Below are positions 1-6,797 of a stretch of DNA of 6,797 nt, in pieces. A program made the translations under genes and the position numbers. Origin of the DNA: a virus (Duplodnaviria; Heunggongvirae; Uroviricota; Caudoviricetes). The stretch's first letter is position 1; every line of letters begins with the position of its first letter. Below the pieces are notes generated by a model. The model was not told the origin of the DNA. It did not search any database and saw nothing but the letters and a program-made list of their open reading frames with translations. The stretch spans positions 1-6,797 of the IMG/VR virus record IMGVR_UViG_2690316105_000023. One strand, given 5' to 3'.

Positions 1-315
1 TCATGATTCCACCTCTCCGGTTTTAACGTTGATGGTTGTTACCTGTTCCGCTTCGGCAATCTCCCGTTCTGTCAGCGTGGCAAAGTTTGCAGCTGCCGTT
101 GTCATGAATGCGCTTATCAGTTCGGGATTCTCCTTCGCGTATCCTTCCCGTGTGTGGCGGTCTATAACTTTGATTGCCACCTTTAGGGAAAGCTCTGTCA
201 TGTCTAACGCTTTATATTTTTGCTGTGTTCTGTCTCTGCGCATTTTGGTCATTTGTCGCCCCTGATTCATGTTTTCGGTCGGCATGTTTGTTAAGTGATT
301 TTGATGTATGCACAT
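1..315 (-). CDS. Hypothetical protein, 5' portion only (runs off the left edge)
   Basis: Open frame with two candidate starts: ATG 315 (GGGGG SD, 9-nt spacer) or ATG 252 (AGGGG SD, 6-nt spacer; MTKMRRDRTQQKYKALDMTELSLKVAIKVIDRH...). No stop within the window. Function unknown. Confidence 0.5.
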   Translation of the reverse strand: MCIHQNHLTNMPTENMNQGRQMTKMRRDRTQQKYKALDMTELSLKVAIKVIDRHTREGYAKENPELISAFMTTAAANFATLTEREIAEAEQVTTINVKTGEVES

Positions 316-361
316 TTATTTTTACCCCCTCGTTTAAAAAGTTTTAGGTTGTGGTGCACCT

Positions 362-587
362 CCTCTACCTCTCTACCTAATCATCTTTCAGGTCAGTAAT
401 GGCGCGGCTTTCAGATGGGTAGAGGGCTTTCGTGGCCCTCTACCCATCATCTACCCGCCCCTCACAAACAACCTTAATCATGGTGGAGGGGGTAGAGGGC
501 TTTTATTTGCCTTCTACCTGCCCCTCTACCCACTTATCATATTGAATAATTTATATTTATTTTCTTTAGGTAGAAGAGGTAGAGGGC
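362..587. repeat. Iteron cluster, putative origin of replication
   Basis: At least nine copies of the 7-bp core CTCTACC / GGTAGAG in both orientations: 363-369, 371-377, 418-424, 438-444, 450-455 (partial), 492-498, 512-518 (variant), 524-530, 569-575 (variant), 578-584. Includes the inverted pair GGTAGAGGGC-N7-GCCCTCTACC (418-444) and an AT-rich stretch at 532-567. Starts right after the primase stop. Confidence 0.7.
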
Positions 588-599
588 TTTTGTCTAAAA

Positions 600-2354
600 T
601 TATAAAAACGCGTCGCAATCCTCTGTTGTTGTCACATTGGTTTGCGTAAGTCCTTTAACCCTGCGCGTTATATATTCACATCCGTAAACTTTTGCCGCTG
701 GCTTCATGGCCTTGCTGAAATCAGCCACGTTTAGCGGCTTGCTTCTTCCTGCGTATGCCATAAACGCCAGATAGACGCGGTAAAGGCTGTTTCTGGTCGT
801 GTACTTCACTGAATCGCCACCGCCACCCATCATCAGGCCGCGCGCTTCCTCCAGAAAATTCAGGAACTGGCAAAACTCAATAACCGGATCCGTCTGTTGC
901 TTTATTGCCAGTGCTTCATCACCGTCACGCTGTTCCAGTAGTAAAGCCCGTGCCTTCTCAGGGTCGGCAAAGTTCGCCAGTAATCGGCGGATAATCACAG
1001 GGATTTCAGCCGCGACCTTCTCCGGCAAATCCTTGTCCTTTTCTGCCTCGCTAACGATATTGTCAAAGCGAAAAATAACCCGACGACGTGCCACGCCTCC
1101 GGCCCGTTCGGTGAATATCATCGGGTTGTTGTTGGTCGTCAGCACCACCGCCCTGATTACCGCCGTGAAACGCTTTTCATATTTCGGGTTAATTTCCACG
1201 GGGTCGCCGCCCGTGATTTTCTTGATGCCCGTTCCTTCGCCTGTATATTTCGGCTGGTCTGCCAGGACGATAAGACGACTCCCGACAACCTGCGCACGTC
1301 CACCAGCATCATCAAGCGATGTCATTTCAGCGCTTACCGTGTTCTGTTTCCCTGCCAGAAGGCTGGCTATGTGCGTGAATGTACTTTTACCGCTTCCGCC
1401 GTCTCCGGTGGCCTCAATAAACATCTGCCAGTCGTACCGGTTCGCCATAATCATGTACAGCGCGGCACATATACGCATCATCTTGCGCGGGTCTTTTCCG
1501 GCTGCGTGCTCAAGCCATTTATGAAAATTTGGCGCGTTATCGCGGATGTTCTCCCCTGGTGCTGGTGGCGTGTACTCAATACCGTTGTGCGTGGTGATCC
1601 AGTTCTCCGGCGTGTGCGGGGAAAATTCCCCCGTTTTCAGGTCAAGCGCACCATTGGCGAACGGCAACAAATCGCCGGACGGCTCGCCCATTGGTTCGGC
1701 AATAACTTTTAACGCTTCCACGGCGTTATTGATTACGCGCTTGCTGAAAGTGGCCCTGTGCTCTGAATAGATCGCCACCATTTCGCGGCTAAGTTCCATT
1801 GTGCTGACCGGACACCATACCCCGCCGCGCCATACGTGAACGATTTCACTTTCAGGATGTACGCAAACGCCATCAAAGCGATCGGCAAGCAGCTGCGCGC
1901 GCTCACTGTCCGCCATCTGCGAAAGTTGCGCCTTTTGCTTTACCGGAAGCTCAATGACCAGACCATCAGAAAGATTCTGGCGCTCACGGGCCAGATATTC
2001 GCGCCAGTTCTCCACCTTCTGACCGTGCATACCATCAGGGTAAAAATTTGCATCCTGTACGCCTGCCGCCGCCAGCTTCTGGCCAATCGCCTTTATCATT
2101 ACTGGCGCAAGATATCCGGCCCTGAATATGCGCACGGATTTTCTGCCTTCCGGCACAATTTGCAGCTTATCCAGTTCTGATAACTGCTGCTCCCCAAGCC
2201 ACACAGGAGGCTCATTATCTCCGGCCATACGCGCATCATGTTCCTGCCATTGTTTCGCGTGTGCCCAGGCATCACTACCCGCAAAAATAATGACTTCTGT
2301 TCCTTTGTGTTTTATGCCGCGTGACTGCTGTTTTACGTTCGGTGCCAGTTTCAT
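600..2354 (-). CDS. Primase/helicase-type replication initiator (P4 alpha-like / PICI Pri-Rep-like, SF3 P-loop NTPase)
   Basis: 584-aa ORF with AGGGG SD 6 nt upstream of the ATG. Walker A motif GDGGSGKST and Walker B-like RLIVLADQ are present; the gene sits directly upstream of an iteron cluster. Confidence 0.9.
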   Translation of the reverse strand: MKLAPNVKQQSRGIKHKGTEVIIFAGSDAWAHAKQWQEHDARMAGDNEPPVWLGEQQLSELDKLQIVPEGRKSVRIFRAGYLAPVMIKAIGQKLAAAGVQDANFYPDGMHGQKVENWREYLARERQNLSDGLVIELPVKQKAQLSQMADSERAQLLADRFDGVCVHPESEIVHVWRGGVWCPVSTMELSREMVAIYSEHRATFSKRVINNAVEALKVIAEPMGEPSGDLLPFANGALDLKTGEFSPHTPENWITTHNGIEYTPPAPGENIRDNAPNFHKWLEHAAGKDPRKMMRICAALYMIMANRYDWQMFIEATGDGGSGKSTFTHIASLLAGKQNTVSAEMTSLDDAGGRAQVVGSRLIVLADQPKYTGEGTGIKKITGGDPVEINPKYEKRFTAVIRAVVLTTNNNPMIFTERAGGVARRRVIFRFDNIVSEAEKDKDLPEKVAAEIPVIIRRLLANFADPEKARALLLEQRDGDEALAIKQQTDPVIEFCQFLNFLEEARGLMMGGGGDSVKYTTRNSLYRVYLAFMAYAGRSKPLNVADFSKAMKPAAKVYGCEYITRRVKGLTQTNVTTTEDCDAFL

Positions 2355-2650
2355 TTTTTACCCCTGAATCCGTTAATCATGGTTTTCAGCTTCTGGATGT
2401 TTGCCCGTGCCCTGGCGTTGCTGGTGGGCACGTTATGCGGCGCGGTCTGTACCAGAGAAAAATCACGCCGGAACTGATAAACAGGCATCACGCAATCATA
2501 TTCGTAACCTTCACGGCGGTAGGTTACGCGCCGTTCTTCCACGCCCTTAATCATTACCGTGCCGCCGTACTGGTCGCGGTAAATATCACCGCGCGTAAAT
2601 TTAGGGTGAGTGTTGCCACTGGCAGTTAAGCCAGAATATTTAAGTTTCAT
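2351..2650 (-). CDS. Hypothetical protein, 99 aa, translationally coupled to the primase gene
   Basis: GGAG upstream of ATG 2650; its TGA stop overlaps the primase ATG (ATGA). No family recognised. Confidence 0.7.
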   Translation of the reverse strand: MKLKYSGLTASGNTHPKFTRGDIYRDQYGGTVMIKGVEERRVTYRREGYEYDCVMPVYQFRRDFSLVQTAPHNVPTSNARARANIQKLKTMINGFRGKK

Positions 2651-2655
2651 TATTT

Positions 2656-2889
2656 TTATTCTCCGGTGTGCTGTTCTTTATATCTGTCGTGCAATAGATC
2701 TATTTCTTGCAGTTCCATTATTACAGGCTCAAGAAGCGTTATTAATGCCGTGGCAATTCTTGATTTTTGTTTGTCGCGTTCATTGTCGCCAAGTGTTTCA
2801 AGCCATATGCGCAATATTTCCAGCATGTTTTCACTGTGAGAAAGTGCAAGAAATGCGCGGTCTATTGTTTCGAGGTAAATATCACGCAT
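2656..2889 (-). CDS. Hypothetical protein, 77 aa
   Basis: GAGGATG SD about 6 nt upstream of ATG 2889; the gene start overlaps the preceding gene's stop. No family recognised. Confidence 0.65.
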   Translation of the reverse strand: MRDIYLETIDRAFLALSHSENMLEILRIWLETLGDNERDKQKSRIATALITLLEPVIMELQEIDLLHDRYKEQHTGE

Positions 2890-3328
2890 GGCTTACATCC
2901 TCAGGAAATTTTCTTCTGTAACGCGCCTCTGCCACATATTCCGCATAATCGGCGGCGATATTCAGTACATCAAGTCCCGTTGATTTATATTCTTTCGTGG
3001 AAAGTAAGAAAAAAGCCGCTCTAATAAGTTCTGGCATTGACGAAAGCGCATCAGCCGCATCATCAGGAACGCCGGAAAATTCCTGTTTCAGGGAATTAAA
3101 ACGATCATCACGCATAACCCCCCCATTTTCACAATCAGCAACAAGAATATTTTTAGCGTCATTCAGCGACCGCGTAGCGGTGTATCGGATATATTCCAGG
3201 GCTAACGTTGTCCGGTCTTTCTGTTCTTCTCCCTGCGCAAGCTCTGCCGTGCATTCAATATCAATAAGCGCGTGCATCAGCGTAGTGAGTGCGGCTGCTG
3301 CGTTCGGTGTGGTTTTATTCTGCAACAT
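2882..3328 (-). CDS. Hypothetical protein, 148 aa
   Basis: GGAG 7 nt upstream of ATG 3328; stop overlaps the next start (ATGCGTGA). No family recognised by eye. Confidence 0.7.
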   Translation of the reverse strand: MLQNKTTPNAAAALTTLMHALIDIECTAELAQGEEQKDRTTLALEYIRYTATRSLNDAKNILVADCENGGVMRDDRFNSLKQEFSGVPDDAADALSSMPELIRAAFFLLSTKEYKSTGLDVLNIAADYAEYVAEARYRRKFPEDVSHA

Positions 3329-3533
3329 ATCTTAACTCCACTGAACTTACGTATTTACACGGGTTTCCTTTTACCTGTCGCACACGGTAGGAATCGTTTT
3401 TAATCACTTCCGCTATTTGCCCAAACTTTTTTACCGCTGTACGGCGGCTCTTGTAGCGGTAAGTGTTTATCTCCCTTCTGCTCATTACCGCTTCATTGTG
3501 ATATCTGGTTATCACTATCAGCACTTCAAACAT
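3315..3533 (-). CDS. Hypothetical protein (72 aa from ATG 3533; ORF track starts at a TTG at 3563)
   Basis: AGGGGG 6 nt upstream of ATG 3533; product MFEVLIVITRYHNEAVMSRREINTYRYKSRRTAVKKFGQIAEVIKNDSYRVRQVKGNPCKYVSSVELRYVAE. Its 3' end overlaps the next gene start by 14 nt. Confidence 0.6.
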   Translation of the reverse strand: MFEVLIVITRYHNEAVMSRREINTYRYKSRRTAVKKFGQIAEVIKNDSYRVRQVKGNPCKYVSSVELRYVAE

Positions 3534-3696
3534 GACGCACCCCCTGACGAATACGGGCGACAAAAATCAGATGTGCGTGCGGCAACTGGGCGCGGGCTTC
3601 GCGTTCAGTGGCTGCGGTAACGGTGTAAATATCAATGCTGCTGTGGTGGCACTGCATAAAGCGCCAGACAAAGTAAGGGCGTGCGGATACAGCCAT
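3526..3696 (-). CDS. Small protein, paralog A1 (56 aa), unknown function; may instead be the C-terminal part of a longer ORF 3526-3990
   Basis: GGGAG 8 nt upstream of ATG 3696; product MAVSARPYFVWRFMQCHHSSIDIYTVTAATEREARAQLPHAHLIFVARIRQGVRHV, paralogous to A2. The stop overlaps the ATG of the next gene (ATGTTTGA). The same frame stays open upstream to 3990/4032, so a 154/168-aa fusion is an alternative. Confidence 0.5.
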   Translation of the reverse strand: MAVSARPYFVWRFMQCHHSSIDIYTVTAATEREARAQLPHAHLIFVARIRQGVRHV

Positions 3697-3861
3697 GTGA
3701 AAGGCTCCCAATTTAATGTTAAGGAGTCTCACCACTACGCTGCTAAACGGGGTGGCGAGACGTAACAGGGTTAGCAGACTGGCAAATTGGGAAACCAGCG
3801 AGCGCAAAGGCTCCCCCGTTACGCCCCGCCATAATGCGGGTATGGGTAGGTTTACGGACAC

Positions 3862-3985
3862 AAAAAAACCGCTTATCGGATATGGGCGGCTGTCCGCCAA
3901 TTTATTCAGGCTGCTAAACCCGGTCGCCATGTGGGCGACGGGTGAAGCATACAGCCCCGTGATAATTTTTTGCAAGCGGTTTTTA
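3862..3985 (-). ncRNA. Candidate structured RNA element between the two paralogs (speculative; possible immunity/attenuator RNA)
   Basis: On the minus-strand transcript a long-range helix (AAAAACCGCUUG pairing with AAGCGGUUUUU) encloses three local hairpins: GGCUG/CAGCC, a 10-bp ACCCGUCGCC/GGCGACCGGGU stem, and GGCGG-ACAG-CCGCC. It ends in a U7 run. It overlaps an open frame (MSKNRLQK...), so a coding interpretation is not excluded. Confidence 0.2.
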
Positions 3986-4180
3986 CTCATGATGTGACCC
4001 CTGACGAATACGAGCGGCAAATACAGCAACACAACCTGACGGGCAACGGCTACGCGCTTCGCGTTCCGTCCAGGCGGTTACGTGGATGATTTGAGATTCT
4101 CCGGCACTCAGGGCCAGAAAACGCCACACAAAGGCCGTTTGTGTGTGTACAAGGTGTGTTATATGATTTACGGCAACCAT
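3983..4180 (-). CDS. Small protein, paralog A2 (65 aa), unknown function
   Basis: AGGAG 5 nt upstream of ATG 4180; product MVAVNHITHLVHTQTAFVWRFLALSAGESQIIHVTAWTEREARSRCPSGCVAVFAARIRQGSHHE. Shares FVWRF, VTAxTEREAR and ARIRQG with A1, and the nucleotide differences in the conserved core are mostly synonymous in this frame. The stop overlaps a downstream ATG (3988-3990) in an ATGAGTAA arrangement. Confidence 0.55.
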   Translation of the reverse strand: MVAVNHITHLVHTQTAFVWRFLALSAGESQIIHVTAWTEREARSRCPSGCVAVFAARIRQGSHHE

Positions 4181-4209
4181 AACGGCTCCTAGTTTACGTT
4201 GTTGGTTAG

Positions 4210-4253
4210 AAGCCCTGCGAGTGGTAATGACACTTGCGGGGCTTTGCTTTTTT
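4210..4253 (+). terminator. Plus-strand intrinsic-terminator-like hairpin inside the 5' leader of the leftward operon
   Basis: 14-bp stem AAGCCCTGCGAGTG / CACTTGCGGGGCTT (4210-4223 / 4231-4244, two G-U pairs), 7-nt loop, then TGCTTTTTT (4245-4253). On the minus-strand transcript the same sequence is a 5' UTR hairpin preceded by an A-run. Confidence 0.45.
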
Positions 4254-4269
4254 AAGTGCTCTTGTGTTA

Positions 4270-4321
4270 AGGTGACCACCTAACAATAGAAAGGCTAATT
4301 CAATAGGTGACCACTTGTCAA
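4270..4321 (-). promoter_or_regulatory. Candidate leftward operon promoter with two direct-repeat operator-like sites (AGGTGACCAC)
   Basis: Minus strand: perfect -35 TTGACA (plus coords 4316-4321), 18-bp spacer, -10 TAGCCT (4292-4297). Identical 10-mers AGGTGACCAC at 4270-4279 and 4305-4314, each containing the GGTNACC palindrome, lie in the spacer and just downstream of the predicted start site. Confidence 0.4.
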
Positions 4322-4506
4322 CAATCAAACGCGATAAAAGCCCTAAAGGGGACGGGCAATCCCCACAATTCAGAATGCGAATTTCTCCAGAGCTAAAAGA
4401 GCAATTCGATAAAGAAGCACAGAGCGACGGCATAAGCCTAGCCAACTGGCTTAAAGAGTTGGGGCGTACTGAACTAAAGCGGCGCGGTATAGAACCCAAA
4501 GGATAA
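4315..4506 (+). CDS. Putative ribbon-helix-helix (CopG/Arc/MetJ-like) DNA-binding protein
   Basis: Segment RMRISPELKEQFDKEAQSDGISLANWLKELGRTEL fits a beta-strand / helix / helix RHH pattern. Start is uncertain: TTG at 4315 (AGGTGA 4 nt upstream) or ATG at 4375 (no clear SD), giving 63 or 43 aa. Confidence 0.45.
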   Translation: MSTIKRDKSPKGDGQSPQFRMRISPELKEQFDKEAQSDGISLANWLKELGRTELKRRGIEPKG

Positions 4507-4563
4507 AAACTATCAGCGCCGTGGTGTGAGGTATTACGGCGCATTGCTATGCAGGACAACACA

Positions 4564-4737
4564 ATGACCGATAAAGAATTGACCAAAACATTATCACCGG
4601 CACGGAAAAGACGGCGCAGAAAGATAGAGCATGAATCAGAAAGATTCGCGCCATGTGCTTTTGCCCTTGAGCAATTCCTTAAAGAGTACAGGGAAAAGCG
4701 CTCATTGCAGGTATGGCAACGAACTGAACCAGACTGA
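4564..4737 (+). CDS. Hypothetical small basic protein (57 aa from ATG 4564; ORF track starts at 4549)
   Basis: ORF MTDKELTKTLSPARKRRRRKIEHESERF... with AGGA 8 nt upstream of ATG 4564 and a KRRRRK basic patch. No family recognised; kept as low-confidence because it is co-oriented with the RHH ORF and followed by the 4833-4860 terminator. Confidence 0.3.
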   Translation: MTDKELTKTLSPARKRRRRKIEHESERFAPCAFALEQFLKEYREKRSLQVWQRTEPD

Positions 4738-4832
4738 TTGCATTGCCCACCAGCCTGATAGCGGCTATCATCCCCGTGCTTATGTTTGGGATCACACACA
4801 CAAACGGCGCAGCGTGTTATCTGTTCAGAAAG

Positions 4833-4860
4833 GCGGCTCCATTTCGGGGCCGCTTTTTTT
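4833..4860 (+). terminator. Rho-independent terminator ending the short plus-strand unit
   Basis: 8-bp GC-rich stem GCGGCTCC / GGGGCCGC (4833-4840 / 4846-4853, one G-U pair), 5-nt loop ATTTC, then seven T (4854-4860). Confidence 0.65.
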
Positions 4861-5006
4861 ATGCCTGAAAAACCCCAATTTTGTGGTTTTCCAGTCTCAC
4901 CAGGGCGAACGAATCCCCGCCCACGTTCTGGCGTATATTCAATCTTCATGGTTATAGCTCTGTGTTCAGATGATTGATGTGTGGCGGCTGTGTGCCGCCA
5001 GCGTGA

Positions 5007-5195
5007 TTAATGAACTGCCTTGCAGCTATCCTTCCAGGCCAGAACCTCGGATAAAGACCAGCCAACGGAACGACCGCCAAGTTTACGACGTGATGGGAAT
5101 TGTCCGGCCTTTTCCAGGCGGTAGCGGCATGAGCGGCTAAGGCCTGTTAGCTTTTCGCATTCTTTTTCACGTATAAACCGATCAGTGCTTAACAC
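5007..5195 (-). CDS. alpA: AlpA-family phage transcriptional regulator (excisionase-like HTH)
   Basis: 62-aa ORF with the AlpA signature EKLTGLSRSCRYRLEKAGQFPSRRKLGGRSVGWSLSEVLAW. GTG start preceded by a strong SD (AAGGGGG, 5-nt spacer). It sits immediately downstream of int, as in CP4-57-type elements. Confidence 0.85.
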   Translation of the reverse strand: MLSTDRFIREKECEKLTGLSRSCRYRLEKAGQFPSRRKLGGRSVGWSLSEVLAWKDSCKAVH

Positions 5196-5256
5196 TATTG
5201 CCCCCTTTCGTTTCTTAAAGAGTTATTTCGTGTTCTATTGCGTTGGGATGTGTCTG

Positions 5257-5285
5257 ATTGTGTCAGGATGATTCAGAGTTGGCAA
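5257..5285 (-). promoter_or_regulatory. Candidate sigma70 promoter for alpA
   Basis: On the minus strand: -35 TTGCCA (plus coords 5280-5285), 17-bp spacer, -10 CACAAT (5257-5262), about 55 nt upstream of the alpA GTG. Consensus matching by eye only. Confidence 0.3.
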
Positions 5286-5354
5286 ATGTTGAGGTCGTAT
5301 GGTTTACAGAAACAGGAATAATCAGGATAAAATCATTTAAATTCATGTTAATAC

Positions 5355-5386
5355 AAAGGCATAAAATATTGTTTCATGCCTTTTTT
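5355..5386. terminator. Candidate bidirectional intrinsic terminator between int and alpA
   Basis: Perfect 8-bp stem AAAGGCAT / ATGCCTTT (5355-5362 / 5376-5383) with a 13-nt loop, followed by T-run 5381-5386 on the plus strand and by a T-rich TTGTATT on the minus strand. It lies about 200 nt downstream of the int stop on the int strand. Confidence 0.4.
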
Positions 5387-5495
5387 CTCGCTATTTAAAG
5401 AGTGATTCGCTAGTGTATAAAAAACCAGTAACACATTAAAAATCAGCTACTTATAAATCCGTACACTTTTTCGTCTCTTGTTCGTAGTTGTTCCG

Positions 5496-5525
5496 CATTG
5501 TTGCTCATTGTTGCTCATTGTTGCA
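5496..5525. repeat. Tandem 10-bp direct repeat CATTGTTGCT x3 (third copy CATTGTTGCA) in the int 3' region
   Basis: Read directly from the sequence: cattgttgct cattgttgct cattgttgca at 5496-5525, flanked by further TTGTT-rich sequence. Confidence 0.6.
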
Positions 5526-5579
5526 TGTTGTATCTGTTCGCATATCCAGTATGCGCATACTGAAAAAACACGAAAAAAA

Positions 5580-6797
5580 TTATTTTCTTCTGGCTACTGG
5601 TAGCGTGGTTACGTTTTCATGTGTTCCCGCCAGTATCCCTAACCGCTCCATCCACATATCCAGCGCATTGCGTTTAGCATCCAGATAACGGGAATGATTA
5701 TAAACTCGCTGAATTCCTGGCATCTGATGACCTGTAAGCTGCTCCACGACATGCGGATCAACGCCTAAATCGTTCAGCATGGTTGTAAAGGTGCGCCGGA
5801 TGTCATGCAGTGACCAGTGAGGATGATTAAGCCTCCTGTGCGCTAATCTTCCATACTGCGATACGCTGGCCTCCTGTTTCACTTCCCCCAGCAATAAGCC
5901 CGTGTGCCTGTTCTGCTCCACCAGCTGCGTGACGAACGGCAGGATCGCTTCCGGTATGGGCCGGAATATTGCGACCTTCGTTTTGCTGTGCTCCTTCGGA
6001 ACGGTCCATAGCATTTCCGTAAAATCCCACTCCCCGATCTCCGATAGCCTCAGTTCTACCGTCCTGGCTCCGAAGACAATCAGGAGGCGGATTAACGCGA
6101 CGTAGTAAGGGGAAAATATTTTTTTGTCCAGTGCCTGCAATAATTCGCCAAGTTCTTTGTTACTTAAGACACGTTCGCTTATATCCGGTTTTTTCCCAAC
6201 GTCCGCCACGTTCAGATCGTCCAGAACGTTGCTGATTGCATAGCGCCGCCTACGGCAGAACTTAAGCGCCTGTTTGCACGCCTGTAGCACGAATCCGGCA
6301 GTAACAGGCGTTCGCTTTGCCACCTGGTCAAAACAGGCCAGCCAGTGCCGTAGCTCGCATTTATCCAGCGGCATAGCACCAATCTGCTGTATTACGTGAT
6401 TATTAAGTCGCCTTTTCAGGGCGATATAATCCACGCGGTTTTCCTTTACGTAATACTCAAGCCAGTAGGTGAGCGCATCGCCAACCGTTACGGGCTTTAA
6501 CGCTTCCTGTACGGTGTAATTCATCTCATGACGTGGATTTTTCCCCTCAGCCAGCCATGTGCGACACTGTGCGGCTTTTTCCCTGGCTGCTTTCAGGCTC
6601 AGATCAGGATAACTTCCCAGCTTAATGCGTTCGGGTCGTGTCTCCCTTCCCGTTCCGGCCCTGTATGTGAAATACCAGGTCAATTTCCCTGATGTTAAAT
6701 ATTTCACGCTCAGGTTTCCGCCATCACTATAAAACGTGTTTTTCTCCGCTGGCTTACCATGAAGTTTCCTTAGCAAGGTATCGCTCAGTTTGTTCAT
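5580..6797 (-). CDS. int: Tyrosine recombinase / site-specific integrase, P4-type
   Basis: 405-aa ORF. N-terminus MNKLSDTLLRKLHGKPAEKNTFYSDGGNLSVKYLTSGKLTWYFTYR is typical of the P4-integrase arm-binding domain; C-terminus has the catalytic-core signature (HDIRRTF ... HQMPGIQRVYNHSRY). The ATG lies on the last three bases of the window, so the upstream RBS and promoter are not visible. Confidence 0.93.
   Translation of the reverse strand: MNKLSDTLLRKLHGKPAEKNTFYSDGGNLSVKYLTSGKLTWYFTYRAGTGRETRPERIKLGSYPDLSLKAAREKAAQCRTWLAEGKNPRHEMNYTVQEALKPVTVGDALTYWLEYYVKENRVDYIALKRRLNNHVIQQIGAMPLDKCELRHWLACFDQVAKRTPVTAGFVLQACKQALKFCRRRRYAISNVLDDLNVADVGKKPDISERVLSNKELGELLQALDKKIFSPYYVALIRLLIVFGARTVELRLSEIGEWDFTEMLWTVPKEHSKTKVAIFRPIPEAILPFVTQLVEQNRHTGLLLGEVKQEASVSQYGRLAHRRLNHPHWSLHDIRRTFTTMLNDLGVDPHVVEQLTGHQMPGIQRVYNHSRYLDAKRNALDMWMERLGILAGTHENVTTLPVARRK

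Follow-up and report, generated by a model that had tools for sequence, protein, structure and literature searches.

Recombination directionality factors (RDFs) are small excisionase-type proteins that bind DNA cooperatively and bend it; their operators are degenerate direct repeats, spaced 10–11 bp apart, that are found both at att and in a regulatory region (PMC7498355). Those of Apl (coliphage 186), Cox (P2) and Vis (P4) consist of short degenerate direct repeats with this 10–11 bp spacing, one set being located at att and a second set in a regulatory position, and in each of these systems one small protein is both the excisionase and a transcription regulator (PMC7498355; PMC3936717). Adjacent RDF sites next to Int arm-type sites, overlapping the int promoter, are also found in attL of prophage KplE1, where TorI has five sites with a GTTCG core (PMC2951348), and in phage lambda, in the form of the Xis sites X1-X1.5-X2.

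In phage-inducible chromosomal islands (PICIs), AlpA triggers excision, replication and packaging (PMC6092414; 10.1101/2022.09.08.507074). The AlpA protein of EcCICFT073 activates its own promoter, PalpA (the extent of the PalpA fragment is not given), and induces excision and replication, and it is without effect on Pint (PMC6092414), whereas an alpA mutant of EcCIEDL933 is not inducible (10.1101/2022.09.08.507074). Neither repeats nor an AlpA binding site is described in the publications on EcCICFT073 and EcCIEDL933 that we consulted (PMC6092414; PMC11773190). Furthermore, helper-embedded PICIs carry a doubled attP motif at 81 and 132 bp, for which four integrase arm domains have been suggested as the binder (PMC10111431). 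Here, we analyze a repeat array between int and alpA in a stretch of 6,797 bp, hereafter the window, which comprises positions 1 to 6,797 of the IMG/VR record IMGVR_UViG_2690316105_000023.

The int-alpA spacer and its decamer array

The window is the int/alpA/replication arm of an Escherichia coli PICI, from an island family that includes the experimentally studied EcCICFT073 and EcCIEDL933; the int-alpA regions of both these islands contain a homologous spacer with an equal phased array. All genes are on the minus strand, in the order int, alpA, small open reading frames (ORFs) with a P1-type c4 antisense RNA, a DUF4222 gene and a D5_N/DUF5906 primase-helicase gene, the same layout that is known for Gram-negative PICIs (PMC6092414). 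Over the replication arm, the window shares 95% identity with an island of E. coli O103:H2 FWSEC0007, which further encodes capsid, protease, portal, connectors and terminase and is therefore a capsid-forming PICI. The int gene (5580–6797, minus strand) encodes a P4-type tyrosine integrase with Arm-DNA-bind_3 and Phage_integrase domains; because the integrases of relatives are 409 aa long, the real start is probably located 12 nt past the window end. The alpA gene (5007–5195, minus strand, GTG start) encodes a small DNA-binding regulator of the AlpA family (62 aa; PF05930, E 5e-18) that matches a solved homolog, PDB 8c3t (E 1.6e-16), for which we found no describing paper. Compared with the AlpA proteins of the two studied islands (95–98% identity), it shows 95% identity to that of EcCICFT073 and a single residue change relative to that of EcCIEDL933.

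In the region of the small ORFs, the C4 antisense RNA maps to 3748–3836 on the minus strand (Rfam, 74 bits; gathering score 45), and an a1/b1 target element of this RNA, scoring just below the threshold (44.4 bits), was found at 3903–3952, with an overlapping isrK-like match. The segment 3748–3952 (minus strand) corresponds to a P1/P7 ImmI-type c4-icd module within the region of ORF 3526–4032, and relatives carry Icd-like and AntA/AntB annotations at the c4 region.

The spacer between int and alpA is 384 bp long and has a GC content of 34.9%, compared with 48.9% for the whole window. The first-pass annotation had described this region as an unusually long, AT-rich intergenic spacer, which holds for its context, length and composition; however, 384 bp is above the norm of the family, in which the spacers of relatives measure 364–377 bp, the excess coming in part from an extra decamer and from a second 10-bp indel at 5270–5279. 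The spacer is present in 731 of 5426 complete E. coli genomes, and diverged versions were found in islands integrated at roxA, ilvL/yifB and abgR.

Three head-to-tail decamers had been reported at 5496–5525, 55 bp downstream of int, and the sequence is exactly as described: CATTGTTGCT (5496–5505), CATTGTTGCT (5506–5515) and CATTGTTGCA (5516–5525). Tandem Repeats Finder delimited a repeat of period 10 at 5488–5524 (3.7 copies, 92% matches, no indels, score 60). The TTGTT-rich sequence that had been noted on either side proved to be in the same register, with TTGT starting at 5478, 5488, 5498, 5508, 5518 and 5528. The feature is a six-decamer array (5478–5537) in exact 10-bp register, TTGTTCGTAG TTGTTCCGCA TTGTTGCTCA TTGTTGCTCA TTGTTGCATG TTGTATCTGT, that begins 43 bp past the int stop codon, with the start of alpA about 300 bp downstream of it. 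Its core, TTGT(T) on the plus strand, reads AACAA on the sense strand of int and alpA, on which the family consensus of the array is roughly RAACAAYGTG. Runs of at least four TTGT/ACAA cores at 9–11 bp spacing occurred in none of 300 first-order Markov simulations of the window.

The spacer contains several further elements. A perfect 16-bp palindrome, CAGTATGCGCATACTG (5547–5562), is located 17 bp past the int stop codon, between the stop codon and the array; spacers of the window type (tqsA and roxA islands) carry it with hardly any change, and it is part of a 21-bp insertion that is absent from EcCICFT073-type spacers. In type-2 islands, which are discussed below, a different hairpin, ACGGCTGT..ACAGCCGT, is found at the position of the palindrome. 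As RNA, the segment 5530–5585 can fold into a composite hairpin (−12.2 kcal/mol, z −2.3) that is not followed by a U-tail. Between the array and the promoter-like sites of alpA, there is a conserved AT-rich hairpin (5355–5383; minus strand, −12.9 kcal/mol, z −3.7; plus strand, −9.3 kcal/mol, z −2.4), which has a T6 run on its plus strand, shows a weaker U-tail in the gene-sense direction and is a candidate int terminator on the minus strand or a candidate bidirectional terminator.

Downstream of this hairpin, in a conserved part of the spacer, lies a sigma-70-like candidate promoter of alpA (5324–5351, minus strand; TTAACA, 16 nt, TATCCT), which matches the consensus, the count of such matches being not above the shuffled expectation. 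Another promoter-like site (5285–5257, minus strand) overlaps a second, weaker 10-bp array near alpA, TTGCGTTGGG ATGTGTCTGA TTGTGTCAGG ATGATTCAGA (5238–5277), which gains and loses whole units (TTGTGTCGGA twice in CH4799 and TTGGGTTGGG twice in E21845; CH4799 versus F6321). Additionally, a 20-nt direct repeat, TCGNTNTTTAAAGAGTNATT, occurs at 5208–5227 and 5388–5407, the two copies being 180 bp apart and bracketing the hairpin and the promoter-like region, and an element TTTAAGAG occurs twice in type-2 spacers. An antisense-int transcript starting from the array was also considered and rejected, with no plus-strand promoter found after the array.

Core conservation and copy number

We compared the core and spacer positions of the array over about 75 loci. 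In these alignments, islands at five integration sites share the array, but of each unit the TTGT core alone is kept while the other positions vary. Among the 12 distinct five-unit haplotypes, the TTGT positions show three singleton changes only, compared with 11 variable columns at unit positions 6–10, mostly common polymorphisms, with two singletons. The roxA, ilvL and abgR islands, with about 75% spacer identity, keep six TTGT units, the remainder being changed, and EcCICFT073-type spacers read TTGTTCCATT TTGTTCCTTG TTGTTCGTCG TTGTGTCTCG TTGTTTCACG TTGTCCGCAT. This pattern of conservation is footprint-like, with a core of 4–5 bases repeated along one helical face. The AlpA protein of the window is found, in exactly this form, with both tqsA-type and roxA-type integrases, and we considered such natural AlpA/Int recombinants as a means to tell the possible binders apart; however, the two integrase types are too alike to decide. 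A genome-wide search with the AlpA protein returned three loci only, and no phased arrays were found at the two distant ones among them (in an alphaproteobacterium and in Geobacter).

In these comparisons, the perfect triple of the window emerges as the least conserved aspect of the feature. The spacer of the window is the 14EC001 spacer save for one 10-bp unit, and the spacer of O157:H7 DEC4E, which represents a different haplotype, is that of strain 9000 save for the same decamer unit; the extra unit is thus present on two haplotypes and therefore arose at least twice. Three copies are possible in just 8 of 541 E. coli genomes (three copies being at least 95% identity to a 140-bp query, with match length read for 60 genomes). 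The 60 sampled genomes included 59 with two copies, in which the 140-bp query matched over 130 bp, and these belong to the 533 of the 541 genomes that have no extra unit. Two copies were also found in all 10 contexts of the exact AlpA protein, in all 43 tqsA-type arrays from the AlpA scan of IMG/VR loci, and in each of the at least 29 genuine arrays among the matches listed from variable-gap pattern scans of metagenome and viral collections, where the matches listed were for the most part chance matches. Altogether, the perfect triple was absent from about 80 other loci, the pattern-scan share of which refers to the matches listed, and EcCICFT073 and EcCIEDL933 carry the unexpanded array.

Judged by these spacer pairs, the triple is a rare gain of one 10-bp unit by replication slippage, from five to six sites with the helical phase unchanged, and it is probably recent and near neutral. 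The proposal that the repeats form a copy-number-variable tract thus receives some weak support from rare one-unit gains, and strain comparison did reveal one-unit differences between otherwise identical spacers; however, free variation is contradicted by a copy number almost fixed at two, and the broad spread in close relatives that is characteristic of contingency tracts was not seen among the 541 genomes. Gains and losses of whole units are likewise tolerated in the second array, close to alpA, and in the array that type-2 islands carry at the equivalent position, as expected for sites that are read along one helical face.

Recurrence at att arms and upstream of the capsid gene

We searched for phased ACAA/TTGT runs in four complete relatives, namely, 14EC001 (L001/L107), EcCIEDL933 (L108, 32 kb), FWSEC0007 (L110, 27 kb) and EcCICFT073 (L112). 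These runs are confined to the int-alpA spacer, both att arms and the capsid upstream region, and none were found in 27 kb of flanking chromosome. The window ends at the int start, and the possibility that the motif recurs near att sites outside it had been raised; it does so on both arms in all four complete relatives. One att arm, between the int start and the chromosome junction, reads, for example, GTGACTACACCAGTGACTACACC..CACAAAGGGC TACAACGTGA AACAAGCTGG AACAAGG, and the opposite end of the island carries an equal module in equal orientation to that of the int-side arm. In the three capsid-forming islands, another array of 3–5 AACAA units is located just after a terminator hairpin, about 200 bp before the major capsid gene (L001, 3583–3650; L108, 9783–9850; L110, 9591–9640). 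A 25-bp block, AACAACGTGGAACAACCACGAACAA, is found in this capsid-upstream array and, in the opposite orientation, in some variants of the int-alpA array. Compared with the other three arrays, the one between int and alpA has an inverted orientation; the arrays of the islands comprise three to six sites.

On both att arms, the phased arrays adjoin a doubled, co-oriented element, ACTACACC, with 12-bp spacing (L108, 2159–2178 and 17387–17406; L110, 2279–2298 and 17990–18009; L112, 6885–6904 and 18104–18123). On one side, about 80–92 bp separate the doublet from the att identity block, and on the other, 126–141 bp; the doublets resemble the motif of helper-embedded PICIs, tgTGTATTGCantgTGTATTGCa, in being co-oriented on both arms and in their comparable distance from the crossover (PMC10111431). 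The helper-embedded PICI motif thereby matches the neighbor of the AACAA arrays, not the decamers, and its proposed binder is itself only suggested. From its sequence and placement, the ACTACACC doublet is probably the integrase arm-site set. In the L104 island, in which Int is 68% identical (N-terminal domain, about 65%), the doublet is replaced by two copies of TGTGTGGTCAG, and the TTGTTCG arrays are unchanged. The doublet changes with Int and AACAA does not, which would leave AACAA for a different protein.

The type-2 islands, in which AlpA is 55% identical, keep AACAA/CGAACAA arrays on both att arms, and L105 also has a CGAACAA array just downstream of alpA. In the int-alpA spacer of type-2 islands, a phased AATATC motif (sense strand) takes the place of the TTGTT array, again with unit indels. 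The AATATC array comprises 3–4 units (L016/L109, 20101–20162; L098, L100, L101 and L105, with one fewer in L101 and L105; AlpA 55–64% identical), and L104 has two GTGATATCAC palindromes (GATATC) upstream of its type-2 alpA. Since AACAA persists at the att arms of type-2 islands, there is no simple correspondence between the motif and the type of AlpA. Either both AlpA types may read AACAA, with AATATC then being for something else, or AACAA may be read by Int or an outside factor. By analogy with lambda Xis, we infer that the two AlpA types would share their base-contacting residues.

Candidate binders and proposed function of the array

We consider the array to be most likely an operator for a cooperative RDF-type protein, with AlpA as the best candidate, an assignment that we hold with about even confidence. 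The RDF-type reading is favored because the conserved core, the recurrence at the att arms and the phased direct repeats match RDF operators. Specifically, the array consists of six cores repeated head-to-tail at 10 bp, that is, about one helical turn apart; the sites are degenerate around a short conserved core; the motif lies beside the putative integrase arm-type sites on the att arms of relatives; and the island has, in alpA, a gene for a small DNA-binding protein of the excisionase/AlpA type. The first-pass annotation had suggested cooperative protein binding, for example by AlpA or at integrase arm-type sites, and comparison among islands strongly favors cooperative binding; an arm-type site at this position is another matter, given its distance of about 1.3 kb from the att junction. 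We infer protein binding, the identity of the protein as AlpA and a regulatory effect from the array and its conservation, recurrence and copy-number distribution, all of which were directly observed.

That the decamers are instead sites for the N-terminal arm-binding domain of Int outside attP, where they would titrate Int or regulate int and alpA, appears unlikely to us. The phased AACAA motif does occur on both att arms, where arm-type sites are expected, the att-arm arrays persist where AlpA is 55% identical but Int is 68–75% identical, and lambda P'1–P'3 are adjacent direct repeats as well. However, arm-type sites are expected within about 150 bp of the crossover, and the array is beyond the int 3' end, about 1.3 kb from the att junction and outside the recombination complex, in which it thus cannot act. 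Six or seven contiguous sites are also more than an Int tetramer needs, whereas the ACTACACC doublet has four half-sites, is co-oriented on both arms and has the spacing seen in helper-embedded PICIs (PMC10111431). Furthermore, it is the doublet that varies with the N-terminal domain of Int in L104 (TGTGTGGTCAG), AACAA remaining the same, and an Int site upstream of the capsid operon is without obvious rationale. Also improbable, in our assessment, is that the array is read by an outside protein, such as an OmpR/PhoB-type response regulator of the host, a nucleoid protein or a protein of the helper phage, for example, its excisionase; in the helper case, the array may be the entry point for alpA induction. 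The motif persists in islands with two AlpA types and three Int variants, as a shared outside factor would explain. Regulators of the OmpR/PhoB type bind 10–11-bp direct repeats, with TorR boxes CTGTTCATAT and ArcA TGTTA repeats resembling the decamers, and the lambda Xis sites X1 and X2 are, like the TTGT-cored decamers, TGT-rich direct repeats. Helper phages induce alpA by an undefined route (PMC6092414), and excisionase cross-talk between PICIs and helpers has been demonstrated (PMC11773190). Nevertheless, the 27 kb of flanking chromosome contains no phased runs, these being restricted to island control points, and the helpers of these islands (lambda, phi80, HK106 and HK446) have differing recombination modules.

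An array without any function, be it a slippage-prone AT-rich tract or a drifting contingency locus, is very unlikely. A difference of one unit between otherwise identical spacers, observed twice independently, and the whole-unit indels in neighboring arrays would fit such a tract, but the conservation pattern in the alignments largely refutes it: copy number is almost fixed (533 of 541 genomes without an extra unit, and about 80 other loci alike, partly as matches listed), TTGT is kept while the remainder diverges to about 75% identity, and the motif recurs at three other defined positions. Still less plausible, and in our view highly improbable, are two further readings. Phased short direct repeats in AT-rich DNA are typical of replication origins, and the P4 alpha protein binds TGTTCACC repeats, so that the decamers could be taken for iterons of the island origin; however, islands with arrays that are the same or nearly so differ in their replication protein, which is a RepA-family helicase, a DUF927 protein or a D5_N primase, three proteins unrelated to one another. 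In E. coli PICI origins, two iteron sets flank an AT-rich core immediately 3' of pri-rep (PMC6092414), and the array has neither this position nor a tie to the initiator. In the window, the canonical PICI origin position directly 3' of the D5_N primase gene, at about 340–590, is occupied by CTCTACC/GGTAGAG(GGC) iterons on both sides of an AT-rich core (541–570), and this segment is probably the replication origin. The origin reading of an array located between int and alpA and shared with three unrelated initiators was thus rejected. Alternatively, the tract could act as RNA in the int 3' untranslated region or encode a small plus-strand peptide: it follows the int stop codon and precedes the first terminator-like hairpin, is probably cotranscribed with int and is overlapped by the plus-strand ORFs 5478–5603 and 5488–5688. 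However, the tract is unstructured as RNA (z +0.5), no Rfam match was found for the array, the motif is found in either orientation and also at the att arms, and the 10-bp unit by which otherwise identical spacers differ would shift any frame, which rules out coding.

In the phage systems, binding of Apl and Cox has been demonstrated, whereas the decamer array is a putative operator. The Apl arrays, with five and seven sites, are similar in size to the PICI arrays, with three to six, which are present on both att arms as opposed to one arm in the Apl and Cox systems. Apl and Cox repress or switch face-to-face promoters, whereas the array described here is located far upstream of alpA, behind a hairpin, and is inverted; moreover, AlpA is unrelated in sequence to Apl and Cox. 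The GTTCG core of the TorI sites (PMC2951348) is similar to the TTGTTCG/CGAACAA units of the islands, although the TorI and lambda Xis sites, unlike the island arrays, are confined to att. Comparison of TorI to the AlpA and HTH_17 families gave matches below threshold only, and the relation between TorI and AlpA is an analogy or, at best, distant homology. Antitermination as described for AlpA of Pseudomonas aeruginosa was also considered, in view of the order array, promoter, hairpin and alpA. That AlpA, with at least 142 residues, has a Q-like fold and recognizes one GGGACG element within the promoter (PMC9371919), whereas AlpA of the window is a 62-aa PF05930 protein; because the two are unrelated, the argument from homology was rejected.

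The position of the array is awkward for a simple activator site: it is about 160–220 bp upstream of the nearest promoter-like site, with the terminator-like hairpin in between. Also against AlpA, an array is located just upstream of int in EcCICFT073, and yet Pint does not respond to AlpA (PMC6092414). The positions of the arrays nonetheless match the AlpA phenotype of self-activation, excision and replication. We outline how AlpA might use them. A small DNA-bending protein of the excisionase type would polymerize cooperatively on the repeats, each decamer taking up one monomer on the same helical face. Upon helper induction, AlpA would accumulate and polymerize on the decamer arrays. At the att arms, AlpA, together with Int bound to the ACTACACC doublets, would favor excision, and on the arrays of the int-alpA spacer and the capsid upstream region, it would remodel DNA and raise transcription. 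Through the related arrays, one protein would link excision to its own amplification and to the expression of late genes, a coupling also seen with Apl, Cox and Vis in their phages. More tentatively, and with somewhat less than even confidence, we propose that the decamers are one of four AlpA-box operators (two at the att arms, one ahead of alpA and one ahead of the capsid operon), such that AlpA would be a dual excisionase and activator coupling excision, self-amplification and capsid expression; the array might also be the first site of a helper-phage factor that switches the island on.

To conclude, the array is a real conserved cis-element of a known general kind, and the operator is not described in the PICI publications that we consulted. 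The natural five-unit and six-unit alleles are a ready pair for the study of array-length effects. AlpA is the known self-amplifying master activator of Gram-negative PICIs, and a conserved decamer at four control points provides a handle on how helper phages switch these islands on and on whether AlpA may also be their missing excisionase.
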